This document shows, piece after piece, positions 24,668 through 60,971 of a DNA stretch of 64,000 nt. The DNA is taken from assembly GCA_050575255.1 (NCBI GenBank), contig JBNZDD010013732.1, forward strand, positions 24,426,566 through 24,490,565. The letters are read 5' to 3'. Within the stretch, counting starts at the first letter, position 1. The number at the start of each line of letters is the position of its first letter. Origin of the DNA: Harriotta raleighana. Its lineage: Eukaryota. The position numbers and the translations under genes are program-made. The notes under the pieces were generated by a model. The model ran no database searches. It was not told where the DNA came from and saw only the letters and a program-made list of their open reading frames with translations.

Positions 24668-24843
24668 CAGTTCTGACGAAGGGTGGTGATTGTCCCAGTG
24701 CTTTGGGATGTCCTCCTGAAGTGAAAGGGGCTCTATAAATGTAATTTTGTTGTTGTTGGACCGGAAACATTGACTCATTTTCCTTTCTTCGTAGATTCTG
24801 CCTGACCTGCTGAGTGTTCCCAGCGACTTCTGTTTTTGTTTCA
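24668..24843 (+). mobile_element. Penelope-like terminal repeat with hammerhead motif, interrupted by an L2 tail
   Basis: CAGTTCTGACGAAGGGTGGTG-[L2 tail about 24689-24757]-GGACCGGAAACATTGACTC...CTGCCTGACCTGCTGAG. Confidence 0.7.
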
Positions 24844-25163: not shown

Positions 25164-25243
25164 AAGGGTCGTGGACCCGAAACGTTGACTCACTTTCCTT
25201 TCTCCATGCCTGACCTGCTGAGTTTTTCCAGTTTTCTGTTTTT
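25164..25243 (+). mobile_element. 5'-truncated Penelope-like terminal repeat
   Basis: AAGGGTCGTGGACCCGAAACGTTGACTCACTTTCCTTTCTCCAT...CCTGACCTGCTGAG. Stem II and GAAACGTT are intact; the CTGACG part is missing. Confidence 0.7.
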
Positions 25244-25424
25244 GGTATAAAACATTTCACTTGCACTCTAATTATATTCAACATGCATTAGTTTTCAACA
25301 TTTCAATCAGCTATTGAGTGCAAATGTGATTCCTGTTAGGATTATCTAGTAAATCAATTGTTGCTCAATTGGAGCCCACTTACTCCAAAAATACAAATGA
25401 TAACCACTTTGCTGAAATTTTTAG

Positions 25425-29487: not shown

Positions 29488-29880
29488 CTACAATTTTGTT
29501 GCTGTCTATACAGTAAGTTAGGCACCAAATTATGGCAGATTAAAACAAAAAAAAAGTTAACAGTTCTAAAAGGGCATTAAAACAGCTTCTATAGAAACAA
29601 TGAATGAAATAGTCTCATTCCTGGCAGACACACAACAGAATTGGCAAATTATGTCCCCATTCCCACCAATCAGGATGCTTGTGTTCAGCCAGGAATGTGA
29701 AATAAACCTTGCATGGTCACCTCAACAAGACCAAAAGGTAAAACAGCAGTCCCATAGCCAGATAGAAGCCCCAAATTCCTCCTACGTTCCATTAGAGCAC
29801 AGTCACATTCAGTTACAGTTACATTGGAGCTCTGTCTCACATTTTCCCAGTAACCACTGTAAATATTTTGTCCTTAGGGA

Positions 29881-30860
29881 AAAAACACACCAAATACTGC
29901 AGATGCTGGGAGTCTGAAAAAAACAGGGGGAAACTCAGCAAGTCAGGCAGCATCGATGGAGAAAGGAAAAGTGAGTTATTGTTTTGGGTCCACGACTCTT
30001 CGTCAGAACTGGGGAGTGTTTTAGAGGGAGAGGTTTTTAAGGACATTAGAGTGGGGGGGGGGGGAGGGTGAAGGCAGGACATGGAAGACATAGGAGACAA
30101 AGAAGACAAAAGAAAGGAGTGTGAAAACTGATGGGTTGAAAATGTGATAACGATGTATAGAAATAAAAAGGAGGGTAGGTTTCAATGAAACTGGGGAGAA
30201 GAGGTGTTTACTGGTGACAGAACAGACAGAAGGCAGGAGGTGTCTGGAGTTATAATTGTGACAACAACAACAACAACAAAATTACACTTATAGAGCGCGT
30301 TTCACGTCAGGAGGACGTCCCAAGGCGCTGGACAGATTGGTTCAGGACCCGAGCAAGGGAAAATGTTCAGGGCGAGGGGGGGGAAGGGTGGGAGCAAGNN
30401 NNNNNNNNNNNNNNNNNNNNNNNNNNNNNNNNNNNNNNNNNNNNNNNNNNNNNNGGGGGGGAAGGGTGGGAGCAAGGAGGGGGTAGAGACTTGAGAGGGG
30501 AGGGGTTGCTCTTATGGTCTGAAGTGGCTAAAATCGATGTTGCAGATAGATTACCACTAAACACCTCTTCTCCCCAGTTTTGTTGAAACCTACCCCCCTT
30601 TTTGTTTCTATACATCGTTATCACATTTTCAACCTGTCAGTTTTCACACTCCTTTTCCTTTGTCTTCTTTGACTCGTGTCTTCCATTTCCTGCCTTCCCC
30701 ACCCCCCTCCCCCCCCACCAATGTCCTTAAAAACCTCTCCCTCTAAAACACTCCCCAGTTCTGACAAAGGGTCATGGACCCAAAACATTGACTCACTTTC
30801 CTTTCTCCATGGATGCTGCCTGACTTGCTGTGTTTCCCCAGCAACTTCTGTGTTTTTTTC
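29881..30860. mobile_element. Inverted pair of Penelope-like terminal repeats with an L2 fragment and an assembly gap between them
   Basis: About 29915-30216 (-) is the reverse complement of about 30553-30860 (+). Each arm carries a CpG-decayed CTGACGA...GAAAC motif. An L2 tail lies at about 30258-30400. Confidence 0.8.
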
Positions 30861-35505: not shown

Positions 35506-37122
35506 CAGTAAAACCTCGTTCATAGAATCATAGAAGGTTACGGCACAGAAGGAGGCCATTCGGCCCATCGAGTCTGTGCCGGCTCTTTGACAAGAGCAAT
35601 GTCACTTTTATTGACCCCAATCACCAGCTTTCTTCTCCCCATAACCCTGCAAACCCGTTTTCCCCAGATACCTATCTAGTTCTCTCTTAACAGCTGCTAT
35701 CGAATTGGACCTCATAACCCTTTCAGGTAGATTATTCCAAATTCGAACAACTCGCTGAATGAAAAAATTTATTCTAACCTCCCCTCTGCTTCTTTTNGTA
35801 GATATCTTAAGACTGTGACCACGGGTCACAGACACACCTACCAGCGGAAACAGCTTTTCCCTATCTAGCCTGTCAAAACCTTTCATGATCTTGAAGACCT
35901 CTATTAGGTCCCTGCGTAACATTCTCTGCTCCAATGGGAAAAGTCCTAACTTTTCCAGCCTGTCCTCACTGCTAAGATTCCCCATTCCTGGAATCAATCT
36001 CGCGAATCGCCTCTGCACCCTTTCCAGTGCCTTAATGTCCTTCCTGAAGTAAGGTGCCCAGAACTGGATGCAGTACTCCAGCTGAGGCCTAACCAGTGTT
36101 TTGTATAAATTAACCATAACTTCCCTACTCTTAAACTCTATGCCCCTACTAATAAAGCTCAGTACACCAAATGCCTTTTTACTGCCTTATCTACCTGCGC
36201 TGCTACCTTTAATGATTCGCTTACTTGAACACCCAGATCTCTCTGTATGTTCACCCCCCTTAAGATTGAGCTACCAAGATTACATTGCCTCCTATCATTT
36301 TTCCTACCTAAGTGTATCACCTCACACTTATCCACATTGAAATCCATCTGGCACATGTCAGTCCATTCCACCATTCTGTATATGTCTGCTTTTTGTTGGT
36401 TACAGTCCTCCTCACTATTTATCACCCTACCTAACTTTGTATCATCTGCAAACTTGGAAATAGTGCTCTCTATGCCCAAGTCCAGATCATTAATAAATAT
36501 TAGAAAGAGCAGTGGTCCCAATACCGATCCCTGGGGGACACCGCTGCACATCTCCTTCCAGTTTGAGAAACACCTATTAACCACCACCCTCTGCTTTCTG
36601 TCACTCAGCCAGTTCTTAATCCAAACTGCCACNNNNNNNNNNCGACCCCCCCCCCCGAGCGTGCCAGATAAACAAGGTTTTACTGTATTTTAAAACATAC
36701 CATGTTAATAATGTGGAGCTCCTGTGGCTTAGTGGTTAGAGCATTTGCCTTACAAGCATGAGACCTGTGTTCGAATCCAGGCAGATCAGGGCGAAACCTT
36801 GGGCAAGTTTTGTTACTCCACATGCCTAATAATAATCCCTCCAAAAAAAAATAATTCAAATATTCTGTGAGTGCGTAAATTTACCAAGTGCGCATGCGCA
36901 CGCATTGCACGTATGTGCAAGGTGAGCAAACTCGCGATTCTGGAATGGGGAATTGTCCCAGGAGGGGGTCGAGCAATTGAATCGAATCACGGATAAACAA
37001 GGTTTTACTGTAAGTTAATTTTTAATGTTGGGTTTTCAGCGACTTGTCTTCCATTTATCCGGCAGAGTCAATTAATTTGCCACCCCCCTACCCCAGGGTG
37101 CCGGATAAACAAGGTTTTACTG
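35506..37122. mobile_element. Compound Tigger-like MITE cluster hosting a CR1 and a SINE head
   Basis: Left TIR start CAGTAAAACCTCGTT at 35506. Three GATAAACAAGGTTTTACTG-TA ends at 36685, 37010 and 37122. SINE tRNA head at about 36713-36855. Confidence 0.8.
35521..36632 (-). mobile_element. CR1-type LINE 3' portion (RT C-terminal half)
   Basis: ORFs 36159-36632 (GVPQGSVLGP, KFADDTK) and 35608-36117 (LVRPQLEYCIQFWAPY) are separated by a frameshift. CR1 tail GATTCTATG at 35521. Confidence 0.93.
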
Positions 37123-43412: not shown

Positions 43413-45844
43413 AGGTGTGAGTTATTGGCAGACATTATCTGCATCATATAATCATAAAATTAGTGCAAAAGATTACCTGACAATCAATATTTATTTCATC
43501 TTAATTACATCAAATAACTTGATTCAATTAAATTGGGAAATAGATCAGAGCAGCAGTTACAAATGGAGATCCAGGTCACACAATGGACAATCCTTTAACT
43601 TCTAGGCTTTGCGTTCTGATTTATTTTGTAATACAGTACTAGAATAAAACATCTCAAAGAATCTAAGGAAGTCTCAACAAATTTGCTGGTGAACGCAGGG
43701 CTGTAAGTAATGTTCCCGATAATTTATCAGAAGACGAGTCTCAATTGAGTGAAGCTTGGAGGATATCTCAGTGCAAAATAACAACTTTACCATAACAATT
43801 ACAATAATCCTTGCATTTGATGTAGCGCTTTTCACTATAGGTAATGTTTGGCAGAGATTGCTAATAAACTTGAATGCAGTAAAGAGGGAGCTTTGCTCTA
43901 GATGTACCCTGCCCTATGTGTTGCCTGTGATTACAGTCAGGATCAGTCTTCACTCGCAAACATTGTTTTTTTTTAAAATGGTGTGTACTCTTGCAATTCT
44001 GGGAAAGAACAAAGTACCAGGTTAGGACTTTGAGCCAATTGTCCGGACTGCATTGTTGGAGGTGCCATCAAGCGGATGGGATGTTAAACTGAGGTCCTGT
44101 CTGTCTGTTCGGGTGGACATTAAAGATGCCATGACACTATTCGGTAAGAGGAGTTTCTCCAGTGTCCTAGCCAACAATCCTCCAAGTAAAATTGGACATT
44201 CACTACACTCTATAGTAATTGAATTTTCAAACCTTTTCTTCATTTTCAATCCATCATTGAAAATCTAAAAAGCAAGTGGTGTTTAAAAATACTGTATTGT
44301 ACAATGTGTTACAATATATTATATTGCATCCAAGACATGACAAACAGATCAGCTATTATGACTCTTTTCCCACATAAACAACAACGTCCTTGGAACCTAT
44401 GGTACCTAATAATTTTTTTTCAAAGGACTTAGCCTGGAAAGGTCAAATTTCAACAAAAGTTCCAATTTTTAAAAAAATCCTGGGGCATAATTACTTGTAA
44501 TTTCATCTCTATCATATTGAAGAATTTGAAAATCATATTACATGCTACCAAAGGAAGACAGGGAATATCCCTGTCAAATTCCTTAACTGTTTAGTACTTT
44601 GGGACGTCCTCCCGACACGAAAAGTGCTACACAAATGTTTTTATTAAATAGATGCTTACCAATTAAAGTTGACATGAAAAGTATTCGTTTTCCTATTTTC
44701 TCTTGCCAAATTGGCAACAACAACTTGTATTTATAAAGCACCCTTCGGCAGGATGGCATTTCAAAACACTTCTTTTTACGGGATACATCACTTGGCAGTA
44801 CAACACACAATAATCTCACAGTTTACCAGAATTCGGGTCTGCGGAGTTTAAGTATATAACAAATAAAACCAGGATTGAGATTGGTTTAATTTTAAAAAGT
44901 ATCATGTACTGAGAAAAAAACACTTGATGTGTGAATACTGCCGATGCTCAAACTGGGTTTTGAGTTGCATTTTCTTTTCTGGAATCAATCAATCCAAGAT
45001 AAATTCAACTTCAGCAAAAAGACCCAAGCTTTTAATATCGCAAAGAAAGTACAGTACTGTACTTTGAAACTTGATCTTGGATACAGTATTTCATATCTGA
45101 ATACAAATCACATAAGTTGATTTGTTCATCAGTGCAAACAGCAATGATCCACTCCCCCAACCACAAATTATATTTGTATAATTGCACATTAGGAGGACGT
45201 CCCAAGGTGTTGAGCTGGTGGGTTCACAAGGGTTCAGAAACTGCTCCTTTGGCATTCGCATTGGAGAAGCATAGAAGCTGAGCTCCATTCCTGAGTGAAT
45301 TTAACATATATAGTACTAAAATCTTCTAATCCTTTATGCGTCAGTGATCATCTTACAACTCGGATATACTTATGTGCTTAACTAAAAACCAAGTGTTCCT
45401 GCCCCATACTTCACAAATACTTGCACCACAAAAACAAGGAGAACTGGTTTCCCAATGCCCTTAGCCGTTAAGATTTTTCTTTAAACCCGTAGTTCCTTAT
45501 GGGAGCTCAAATATCTTCAATTATATTGCAATGTTAACTGTTCCTTAATACATTAAACATTCTAAATAATTAATTCACTTTCAGAATAACAACACACTCC
45601 TCTACATCTGCTAACCAAGCATTTTTTATTCCACTGTTTCAAGTAGTGTTAAAAGCAGCTATACTTGAGTGCACTCACACCGTTTACACAACTGGGTACA
45701 TTAGTAAATAAATACTAGAGCTAGCCAACATGCATTTTATTTAACAAACACGCTTGCTTACAGTTTTCTTATTTCCAAATTTGACAACCACACAATCTAC
45801 AAATCAGATTGCCAATAAAGTGGCAGGAAATATCCAATTGGAAT

Positions 45845-45977
45845 AAAAACACAAAATACTACAGATGCTGGAAATCTGAAACAAAAATAGAAATCGCTGG
45901 GAACACTCAGTAGGTCAGACAGTAGCTATGGAGAAAGGAAAAGTGAGTCAACTTTTCGGGTCCACGACGCTTCGTCA
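45845..45977 (-). mobile_element. Penelope-like terminal repeat with degenerate hammerhead motif
   Basis: Minus strand reads TGACGAAGCGTCGTGGACCCGAAAAGTTGACTCACTTTTCC...CTGACCTACTGAGTGTTCCCAGC. Confidence 0.75.
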
Positions 45978-46009
45978 TATATATCAAGTATTTATAGTCT
46001 GCAAAATAT

Positions 46010-55474: not shown

Positions 55475-55785
55475 ATAATAATAATCCTTACATTTTGTTA
55501 TAGCGCTTTTCACGTTTTCTAGCTGTCTCAAAGCACTTCACAAAATATACAGTAAAGTGAATTGACTGTATATATGTGGGTGAAATGTGGCAGCCAATTG
55601 CATACAGCAGTGTCCCACAAACAGCTGTGGATTGAAATGACCAATTTTATTATTGTTTTTTTGGAGGGATTACTATTAGGCGTGTGGAGTAAGGAAACTT
55701 GCCAAAGGTTTCGTCCTGCCTGGAATTGAACCCAGACCTCTTGCTTCTAAAGCGAGTGCTCTAACCACTGAGCTACAGGACTCCA
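55475..55785 (-). mobile_element. Full-length tRNA-headed SINE with Deu-like core and L2-like tail
   Basis: A box TAGCTCAGTGG and B box GGTTCAATTCC; core GTTTGTGGGACACTGCTGT...AATTGGCTGCC; tail GCGCTATA...AAGGA(TTA)n. Confidence 0.85.
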
Positions 55786-57362: not shown

Positions 57363-59150
57363 GTAAGTAAATAGATCGTGTTAGTATTGGGAGTAAGGGG
57401 GATGTTCCAGTCTGTGTGTTGTGTATGCAGATGGAGGGAGAAATCGAGTGATCTGCGAATGATTGTTGCTAGAAAATGGTTTGTCTTGTTAAAAGTGAAA
57501 TTAACCCACTACTTTGGGACAGTCTCACCACCGCAGTGAGTCTGCAGATGGATCTAGGGCCACTTTCATCTTCGACATGTAAGACTGGCAGGTTAATCTT
57601 GGGGTTTTACAGTCATTTATTGATAAGCACTAAACCAGTGGCATTTATATCGCACCGGTGGAACTTGCTGCATTTCTAAACCGACGTGGCTGTTGTCTCA
57701 CTGGTGTTTTGAACTTACTGTTACAGAATTGCTGATGGGTCGGAAAATATTTGTGTTTCGCCTTTGTTGGTGGAAGAACTGGTAAACATCACTTAACAGT
57801 GTGGATGGAAGGTGTAAATGGGGTAAAAGGTAGCCAGGTAAAAGCTGTTGGGTTCATGGTTAGGGGAGCCAAGAGTGATTTGAAAGCTGGTGTTAGGTTA
57901 CACTGATTTCCTCGTTGGGGATTCACTATTCCTGACACACCCAGCTGACTAATACAAGAAAGAAATACTGTACCTTGCAAAACTTTACACAATATTCACT
58001 GACATTTTTTTCTATCGTGTTTGGCAGAACCAGTAGGAAGGAATGTGCAGTAAAGATTGTTTTGCTAAAGGTGGCTTGGTGATGTCTTAAGAATGAAAAA
58101 CGATTGCAGAAAATAATCTTTGACCTAATGATTTTTGGTACCTGTATAATACTGTTGGTCGTGAGTACTTTTGTTTTAAAACAGATTACTTTAATGCTTT
58201 GTAATATTGCCAGTCCTTGTGCTACTTGTTTTAGTGGATGTTAAGCATCCCACTCTTGCAAAGAAGAAGGGAGTTTCCACTTCCTGGTCAACAATCTCCC
58301 AAATTAAAAAAAATTGGCCATTCACTTCACAGCTGTTTGTGGGACGTTGTCGTGCCTATGTCGGCCACATTCAACTACAAAATCCAGTCACTAATCACTG
58401 CACTTTACAGTGCTGTATATCCTGTGAAGTGCTTTGAAGTGTCCTCTCAATGTGAAATGGCTCTATGTCAAATGTAAGGATTGTTTGCCTATTTGTTTAT
58501 TTCTTTATGTATTATGTAAATAAAATAAACACAAGGCTAACTCAGTTACACCTCTTAGCATCGTAAAGAGCTTTTCTGTTTATTTCTGAGATCACAAGTG
58601 TATAATTTCCCCAATATTGAGGCAAAAAAAATCGCTTCAGATTTTGATTTAGAAATAGGAAACCGGGTACATTACCATCTAAAATATGGTAGGAGATCAA
58701 CAGGGAGCTTTTCAGACATTCAGGGAAATGGATGCCTTCTACTTGATTTTGTGTCTCTTATGGTAAACCAAAAACAAAGAAAAAGATGGTCTGCTTTCAT
58801 TGATTTTTGTTTGTTTGACATCATAGTGTGTTATTTTAAAGGGTAAAGGACATTTAATAAATCATTTTCATAGGAAATCTTCCTACTCAAAGTACTTAAT
58901 CTGACTATAAAGAAACCTAAGATAAATGAACACTTTACACAATTACAAGTCTACATTGCTTGTAACATGCTGACCATATTCTGTAGCTGCTCCAGTGATA
59001 TTCCTGAGAAGAAAGCACATGACTACTGGAGGTGTTGAGGTAGTATTTTTCAATTATAATAGAGTTATAACGCTTTCAGGAATGTGAATCACAGATCCTG
59101 CAAATAGAGTCTGACTTTTTAAAAATTACAACCAGTATGCAATTTGTAGA

Positions 59151-59408
59151 AGATGCTGAAACAAAAACAGAAATAGCTGGGAACACTCAGCAGGTCAGGC
59201 AGCATCTACGGAGAAAGGAAAAGTGAGTCAACGTTTCGGGTCCACGACTGTTCGTCAGAACATAAGTATATATCGAGTTCTGACGAAGTGACGTGGACTC
59301 GAAATGTTGACTCGCTTTTCCTTTCTCCATAGATGCTGTCTGACCTGCTGAGTGTTCCTAGTGACTTTTTGTTTCAGATTTCCAGCATCTGCAGTATTTT
59401 GTGTTTTT
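59151..59408. mobile_element. Head-to-head inverted pair of Penelope-like repeats, each with a hammerhead-like core
   Basis: 59151-59261 (-) and 59277-59408 (+) are reverse complements separated by a 15-nt spacer. Cores are GTTCTGACGAACAGTCGTGGACCCGAAACGTTGACTC and CGAGTTCTGACGAAGTGACGTGGACTCGAAATGTTGACTCG. Confidence 0.82.
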
Positions 59409-59595
59409 GTTTATAGAAAATACTGTCATTCAACTTGCATTACAATACAAATTTACTTTTATGTGATGTCTTTCATGGCAGGAGGACGTCTCAGGTCTCT
59501 TAAAAATGTTCAGTCTGTCAAAGGAGTTTTCTGTTCTGAGGTTGGAGTGATTTATCAAGCTTTGTAACTACAGTACTTTATTTTTCTCTGTACAG

Positions 59596-59677
59596 GCGAG
59601 AGGTACAATCACACCCTTCCCCAGTTTTAATGCTGAAGATGATGCCGACACTCTTCAGAGTGCCATGAAAGGATTAG
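59596..59677 (+). CDS. Annexin coding exon 2 (ANXA4/A5/A3/A8 group)
   Basis: tacag|GCG...TTAG|gtaacc, 82 nt. Encodes [28 protein letters not shown] (annexin MKGLGT motif). Confidence 0.93.
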
Positions 59678-59787: not shown

Positions 59788-60090
59788 TATGCATTTGATA
59801 TGGCACTTTATCATATTGTTGATGTATGAAAGCATTTCACAGAATATGTCGTCAAGTGGATTGTCTGTGTGCTTTTTGGGTGAAACACAGCAGCCAATTA
59901 CACACAACGGTGTCAAACAAACAGTTGTGGATGGAGTGACCAAATCTTTTTGGAGGGATTATTATCCCCGGAAAGCGATCAGCCAATGGCCTAACAACCA
60001 GTTCCTATTTACTGCTAAGTAAACGGAGGCGTGTGGAGTACGGAAACCATCTTAAGGTTTTTGTCCTGCCTGGGTCCTCTTGCCTCACAA
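59788..60090 (-). mobile_element. tRNA-headed SINE (diverged)
   Basis: Shares the GCAGCCAATT...AAACAGTTGTGGA...GGAGGGATTATTA...GTGTGGAGTA blocks with other copies. Confidence 0.7.
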
Positions 60091-60971
60091 GTCAGCTTCC
60101 CACCCAGAGATCTTAAACTAACACCTAGCTAATTCATAAAACAGTTGAATTAAACTTGCATATTTGTTAGTCGGGACAAACTCTGAAGAGAGTGCCATTT
60201 GTAAATCTATTCAACTCTTATTTTTGCAAGTGCAAGGACATTTTTAATATTTGGATTCTATATTTGGTAAATCCAGATGATGCTAGATTTTTAGGATTTC
60301 ATTTGTGCTCAAGAAAGCACACCAACAGCTTTCTGTAATGCTGCTACAAATTCCAGTTGTGCTCCCCTTCCAATTTTCTGGCAGGTAAAAGCATCGCCTA
60401 TTTAGCACTGTGTCCTGCAGTTCAGAAGGGCAGAAATTTACTAAATTCAAATGATTGTTACAAATCCCGCAAAGACTTCCCAGTCAGGCCTCCGGTACGT
60501 AACAGTTATGTAAAACCAATAAGGAGTGTTCGTGTTCACAGCTGTGGAAATGCTAAATAGACACCACCTCAGTTCCTTGTGATCAAATTATTATTCTGTG
60601 AAGAAGCTCCTTTGACCCCAGTCATGCCAGGATATTTTAAGAGTGTGTGATGTGGACAAAATAACTTTTAGATTAAGTTTGCTTAATTTTCAAATAAAAT
60701 GCTTTGAGACGTCTTGAAGATGTGATAAAGTGCTATATCAAATGCAAGGATTAGTATTATTAATATTTCTCTGGACAATGTCTATGACATAACTTTTTCA
60801 AGCCACCATGAGGTGTGTGTGATCACATGACAACTATCATTCACTGCTCAGCTGAGAGTTAAACTCTGATCTTCCAATAAAGAATCAAAACTCTGATCTT
60901 CGAATAAGAATTCCAGTGTCCTGTTGGCATTAGCTGTTTACCCACTCAATACCAACTTCTTATTTCTTCAG

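Follow-up and report, generated by a model that had tools for sequence, protein, structure and literature searches.

A palindromic pair of Penelope-like end repeats with hammerhead motifs beside an annexin exon of Harriotta raleighana

The palindrome and other family copies in the window

The DNA analysed here is a 64,000-nucleotide stretch of the Harriotta raleighana genome (hereafter the window), in which an initial annotation had described a palindrome of two back-to-back minimal hammerhead ribozyme motifs. Inverted-repeat comparison bears this out: the arms, at 59164-59261 and 59277-59374, are 98 nt long and 85% complementary, and enclose the 15-nt spacer originally given, ATAAGTATATATCGA, although the gapless hairpin measures 98 bp and not about 110 bp. 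The RNA fold of the palindrome reaches -184.7 kcal/mol (z -21.6), which none of 200 shuffles matched. The two arms differ at 15 of 98 sites. The earlier statement that differences between copies are largely CpG decay is upheld. Repeat positions are numbered with hammerhead C3 as 0, and the parts of the locus are as follows.

59143..59158 (+): probable left copy of the target-site duplication, TTTGTAGAAGATGCTG, matching 59410-59425 at 13 of 16 positions
59159..59261 (-): left arm, a Penelope-like element (PLE) end repeat from -3 to +98, without the tail (blastn to a natural long copy)
59225..59261 (-): left minimal hammerhead motif, core boxes intact, 3 of 5 stem II pairs, G10.1-C11.1 lost
59262..59275 (no strand): junction fill ATAAGTATATATCG, unique to the locus; its last G is the 'extra G' that precedes many arms
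59276..59409 (+): right arm, tailed; PLE end repeat covering -4 to about +133 (blastn to a natural long copy)
59276..59313 (+): right minimal hammerhead motif, 3 of 5 stem II pairs, ACGU palindrome changed to AUGU
59375..59409 (+): 35-nt PLE tail, in the right arm only (sequence and blastn to a natural long copy)
59410..59425 (+): probable right copy of the target-site duplication, TTTATAGAAAATACTG (flank comparison)
59596..59677 (+): annexin coding exon of the host gene, best match annexin VI (E 8.6e-11)

The tail is a feature defined in PMC8557442 and PMC11167929. The duplication scores 7, just below our cut-off of 8, and the last 8 nt of its left copy are also readable as arm, in which case it would be 9 nt long. 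As had been noted, an annexin exon follows closely, starting 187 nt downstream of the right arm. Since this exon has no start codon an upstream exon is expected, and the palindrome likely sits in the intron between them. Further inverted pairs about 1 kb apart lie near the exon (59790-59816 with 60720-60746, and 58808-58835 with 59896-59923); they probably represent a different short repeat, present in both orientations.

All seven family copies annotated in the window were recovered at E<1e-8, with nothing further below E 0.6 and no match in a reversed control. Besides the palindrome, they are distributed as follows.

24669..24843 (+): family copy interrupted by a younger insertion; a small inverted fragment lies directly upstream
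25164..25246 (+): solo copy from +6, without the CUGANGA box, with TATAAAACATTT on either side (by eye)
29878..30859 (no strand): second head-to-head pair, with longer arms (-302..+138 and -211..+98), comprising the copies at 29971(-) and 30757(+)
45843..45977 (-): solo tailed copy from +1, lacking the helix I 5' strand and C3

Their presence stands, with corrections to individual copies: the one at 25164 begins only past the CUGANGA box, that at 45977 has neither C3 nor the helix I 5' strand, and that at 24669 is interrupted. The pair at 29878..30859 contains a later insertion and an N run and is flanked, by eye, by the duplication TTGTCCTTARGG. Short repeats with TATAAATGTAATTTTGTTGTTGTT-like tail ends lie inside two PLE arms (24689-24756 and 30262-30491) and, being inserted in them, are younger than their host arms. 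A resemblance had been drawn between the palindrome spacer and TATATATCAAGT beside the copy at 45977; the sequence is indeed present at 45978-45989 and agrees at 11 of 12 positions, but no common junction exists genome-wide, TA-rich filler is seen at another family locus (L222) too, and the likeness is probably chance or filler bias. Two tRNA-like matches in the window, at 55711-55782 (-; 57.4 bits) and 36722-36784 (+; 33.6 bits), are probably heads of tRNA-derived SINEs and not tRNA genes, since similar letters head a repeat at a further locus (L290).

The parent element and its hammerhead motif

The parent was sought with the copy at 30757 as query; 40 of 4542 candidates were scored and 30 loci extracted. 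Among these, long copies reach 1.8 kb, and their translations show reverse transcriptase (RT) motifs (by eye), a C-x4-C-x2-C linker and a GIY-YIG domain. GIY-YIG exceeds the Pfam cut-off (24.1 against 22.6 bits), and a short RT piece, with its motifs visible, gives a Pfam E of 0.034, weaker than the cut-off. The order is RT-EN-3'UTR-repeat, the repeat lying downstream of the RT/GIY-YIG ORF in long copies. Walking in the 5' direction, we found that the end repeat continues into the front of the ORF at four loci (L273, L277, L294 and L300), and a stop codon follows the tail in all five copies read, with the likely ATG about 35 nt beyond. Because the repeat both precedes and follows the parent ORF, each arm is the pLTR end and likely also the mRNA 5' leader. 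At five loci (the same four and L287) a pyrimidine run and TAG directly past the tail, just before the likely ATG, resemble a second splice acceptor. A separate RT match, at G000:C13480:558607-558876, lies inside an open frame of 2284 aa.

The linker, read in the translations of L057 and L066, fits the CX2-5CxxC linker preceding GIY-YIG that PMC8557442 gives as a feature of Neptune, common to Nematis too; by this linker criterion the parent may be classed as a Neptune-like PLE. The family shows the features of EN+ PLEs, namely RT followed by C-terminal GIY-YIG, a pLTR, an inverted 5'-truncated copy with a tail at one end, and a short duplication. The arms belong to a PLE with RT and GIY-YIG, and the original assignment of the motif to the Penelope-type minimal type I hammerheads is right. 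Nine 100-kb blocks chosen regardless of the repeat held 25 arms in 881,585 bases (reversed control, 0), a density that, carried over to 1.10 Gb, would give roughly 30,000 arms genome-wide. On average, 77 arms compared diverge by 7.4% from the family majority.

An Rfam scan of the window returned no hammerhead among six matches at E<=5, and the hammerhead call therefore comes from comparing the sequence by reading with the published minimal descriptor (PMC4209133). The majority sequence of the 77 arms has the core boxes, helix I, stem II and a palindromic stem III stub. In 1.98 Mb of sampled, partly motif-selected DNA the descriptor found 49 matches against none in reversed sequence, and no other hammerhead family. 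Stem variation in this one young family takes the form of decay, without a compensatory series. All 11 core bases are kept in 42 of the 77 arms; CpG core bases have decayed at 19%, compared with 22% for other CpG, and the remaining core bases at 5.2% against 7.0% (G/C) and 1.7% against 3.4% (A/T; p 0.03), the comparison set including T runs and subfamily sites. Selection on inserted hammerheads was considered and set aside, the 77 arms giving no clear sign of it and none being expected in dead copies.

Cleavage of the family motif is predicted after GAAACGUU, in the dimer only, and the hammerhead numbering of PMC4209133 puts the predicted cut of the right motif between 59308 and 59309. The 6-bp stem I (CGAGTT/GACTCG) originally read at this copy is adventitious: where the palindrome copy has the CGAGTT-side extension the parent has CCCCAG, and among 38 genomic copies having both GAG and GACTCG, C precedes GAG in only 5. 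Neither arm of the palindrome folds alone as a hammerhead, and a 98-bp hairpin in the annexin pre-mRNA would mask the motif. Both hammerheads at the locus are predicted to be inactive, as had been suspected, because stem II retains only 3 of 5 pairs, the lone fold is absent, each strand carries a single motif and the hairpin would cover it.

Formation of the inverted arms at each insertion

It had been proposed that the palindrome spread as a unit, in the manner of a non-autonomous MITE or retrozyme with a ribozyme on each strand. Short pairs are abundant, and a search with the palindrome as query (40 of 4275 candidates scored; 30 loci extracted, representing 28 distinct places) gave head-to-head pairs of similar size with duplications at all 28. 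These loci, however, were chosen by a palindromic query. For an unbiased set we took 90 of the 223 exact matches to a 36-nt hammerhead motif and dropped three duplicates, and of the resulting 87 unselected loci 30 have an inverted partner within 700 nt (32 of 90 by a looser count). Across 58 pairs, no spacer is common to two pairs (0 of 39 spacers of at least 5 nt). The palindrome junction has two matches genome-wide at up to two mismatches, the second lying outside any element, and is unique in the genome; the initial annotation had named a search for the same inverted junction and had linked its absence elsewhere to an ordinary Penelope inversion, which is the outcome here. Arm lengths differ from pair to pair, from below 40 nt to above 700 nt, and form a continuum with arms that bear ORF sequence. 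Tandem monomers of the retrozyme type were not seen, and each strand of the palindrome has a single hammerhead, masked by the hairpin. Spread as a unit is thus already largely refuted and we regard it as very improbable; the unshared spacers, unique junction and individual arm lengths indicate that the mirror is made anew at each insertion.

The 3' ends of copies fall into two classes, near +98 (short) and near +135 (long or tailed), and both occur among the 56 solo copies (31 short, 25 long). Among 30 unselected pairs, 29 have exactly one tailed arm and one has two short ends. The short-ended arm extends further 5' than the tailed arm in 18 of the 29 one-tail pairs, so that each arm has private sequence and neither was copied from the other, which suggests priming from both nicks. 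Target duplications scoring at least 8 flank 35 of 58 pairs, compared with 3 of 600 swapped-flank controls, and 23 of the 35 are 12-15 nt long; the remaining 23 pairs show none at this cut-off. The arms of one insertion agree in subfamily bases in 86-95% of comparisons, against 48-69% when permuted, which fits a single template but also later gene conversion within the hairpins.

This concordance would also follow if one cDNA reached the end of the RNA, folded back and copied itself into a mirror arm, as is known for R2 insertions (PMC11371274). Such snap-back would likewise account for a second arm of lesser length, and microhomology in helix I is seen at a few junctions (L351, for example). 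At the palindrome itself the left arm falls within the span of the right, so that snap-back may have acted at this locus. Yet it does not provide for arms that each hold sequence absent from the other, nor for short ends at the same +98 site that solo copies use, and pairs with two short ends are confined to the single case above; we consider it unlikely.

Our preferred reading, to which we assign a probability of about 0.85, is that the palindrome is a short, decayed insertion of an EN+ PLE in which both target strands were cut and one cDNA was primed at each nick. Uncleaved RNA of a single source would serve as template, each nick using a different one of its two internal start sites; the cDNAs would both run off the RNA 5' end, some 100-135 nt away, and be joined head to head with filler bases, and the staggered cut would yield the target duplication. 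We infer this twin priming from the counts above together with published PLE work. Inverted pLTR copies, a one-ended tail and 8-10 bp duplications are reported for PLE insertions (PMC8557442, PMC3846280), and in vitro both strands are cut and extended by a PLE protein that starts at either of two internal positions, one on each side of the tail, with ribozyme cleavage unneeded (PMC11167929). In the latter study, which used a Poseidon-clade element, the start site does not differ between strands. Our literature search, thin on subscription papers, found no published model that explains PLE inversions by twin priming or by a capped start. By the features tested, the palindrome is a minimal inverted-pLTR PLE insertion, and this copy is a dead end.

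The 5' boundary of copies and comparison with known systems

The twin-primed reading raises the nature of the RNA 5' end, which was addressed in 86 loci (the unselected set minus one at a contig edge). At 54 of these the copy stops between -2 and -13, here called the helix I wall, and the other 32 extend further, spread over 550 nt. Of the 54 wall copies, 45 keep G(-3) and 32 keep A(-4), with which helix I begins. AGTTCTG has 391 matches preceded by a base other than C, some of them duplicates or mutated long copies; in the first 100, counted by hand, the preceding base is G in 57, A in 26 and T in 17, where G is expected at 26%. Among the 28 wall copies keeping AG, C precedes in 15 and G in 8, and since C outnumbers G the 5' end does not fall at a single sharp position.

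The parent has a TTAAAA/TTATAAA word some 30 nt upstream of the wall, and CCAGTTC at the wall fits an initiator, going by the consensus positions of TATA and initiator elements. An extra G is the mark of capped full-length L1 ends (PMC11702581). We lean slightly towards the view that transcription starts, with a cap, where helix I begins and that this start is the RNA 5' end; the candidate start base may be the A of AGUUCUGACGA. Taken one step further, a double strong-stop can be proposed, for which we would give even odds: the capped mRNA would begin with the opening base of helix I, the nicks would be primed at +98 and +135 on one uncleaved leader, and both cDNAs would extend as far as the cap before being joined. 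If true, a single mechanism would explain why the pLTR is inverted, why only one end has a tail and why the ribozyme is dispensable, and tens of thousands of copies in the genome would record it.

The same twin-primed insertion could also arise with a wall of different origin, either a splice acceptor (CCCCAG|TTCTG) or a nuclease or RT stop at protein-bound helix I, which we hold possible but clearly the less probable account. A branch-point-like CTCTAAY, a pyrimidine tract and CAG do lie upstream of the wall, and an intron of D. virilis Penelope ends at helix I (PMC4209133, PMC2377424). Wall copies nevertheless have no common exon-1 sequence upstream, and duplications often directly adjoin the wall. 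The excess of G is a further difficulty, since neither the consensus of host exon ends nor exonuclease trimming predicts it. A spliced exon 1 derived from the element was rejected, as no ORF-derived match lies upstream of wall copies and the sole match (L343) was read as a flanking repeat. At two loci (L286:1630-1650 and L299:1625-1645) an ORF fragment from a nearly identical ORF position is followed by an A6-7 run, G and AGTTCT; at these joins the enzyme appears to have switched template between an RNA 5' end and a transcript with a premature poly(A) tail.

Two other explanations of the bases at the boundary were discarded: TCGAG, which the loci found with the palindromic query had pointed to as a constant 5' motif, has one match genome-wide, and helix I fold-back as the main source of bases before AGTT predicted C before GAG in copies with GACTCG, as is the case in just the 5 of 38 counted above. 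In 26 of these 38 genome-wide matches the base before the extra G is T, the search pattern disallowing G at that position; this would fit a cDNA that gained a single untemplated A behind its cap-templated C. Breaks at the predicted ribozyme cut number 31, compared with 40 at a control site four bases on, and upstream hammerhead parts are still present at about a third of 30 cut-site loci viewed. The lack of an excess at the cut and the retained upstream parts indicate that templates were mostly uncleaved. Passages of PMC6431247 and PMC8969392 add no information on 5' ends.

Taken singly, the palindrome matters little, being a dead annexin-intron repeat of a known kind. Taken together, the copies bear on how PLE insertions gain inverted ends with a single tail and on the role of the hammerhead. 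The counts obtained here, of a single tail for each insertion, of an absence of starts at the ribozyme cut and of a helix I wall with an extra G, yield sharp predictions for the existing in vitro PLE system.

The nearest relatives are the inverted-pLTR insertions of EN+ PLEs (PMC8557442, PMC3846280), which share head-to-head 5'-truncated copies with 3' ends outward, a 30-40 bp tail at one end, duplications of about 8-17 nt and a parent with RT and C-terminal GIY-YIG. In contrast to those described, the arms of the palindrome are only 100-135 nt long with no ORF between them, and the one-tail rule, worded as 'often' in published PLE accounts, is here counted at 29 of 30. With the minimal type I hammerheads of metazoan PLEs (PMC4209133) the motif shares a short helix I, an extra base between A9 and G10.1, the G10.1-C11.1 pair (in the family majority) and palindromic 15.2/16.2, and the same source reports Schistosoma mansoni hammerhead pairs 100-700 bp apart on opposite strands. 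The present family differs in its GUU triplet and 5-bp stem II, and both palindrome copies are damaged.

Poseidon_Ac of the green anole, as characterised in vitro (PMC11167929), likewise has two RT start sites bracketing the tail, cutting and extension of both strands, and an uncleaved RNA template. Its ORF begins in stem II, whereas the present family has a conserved stop after the tail and a likely ATG about 35 nt further on; unlike Poseidon_Ac, it also has the Cys linker of Neptune and Nematis. The non-LTR retrozymes (bioRxiv 10.64898/2026.07.22.740005) resemble the palindrome in their type I hammerhead, PLE pLTR origin and non-coding nature, but are head-to-tail tandem units, while the palindrome is head to head, unique to its locus and without sign of its own amplification. 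Twin priming of L1 (PMC11702581) shares a second nick that primes internally, an inversion with a target-site duplication and an extra G at full-length 5' ends; its two segments are adjacent parts of the RNA, whereas the arms of the present family copy the same segment from two fixed sites.
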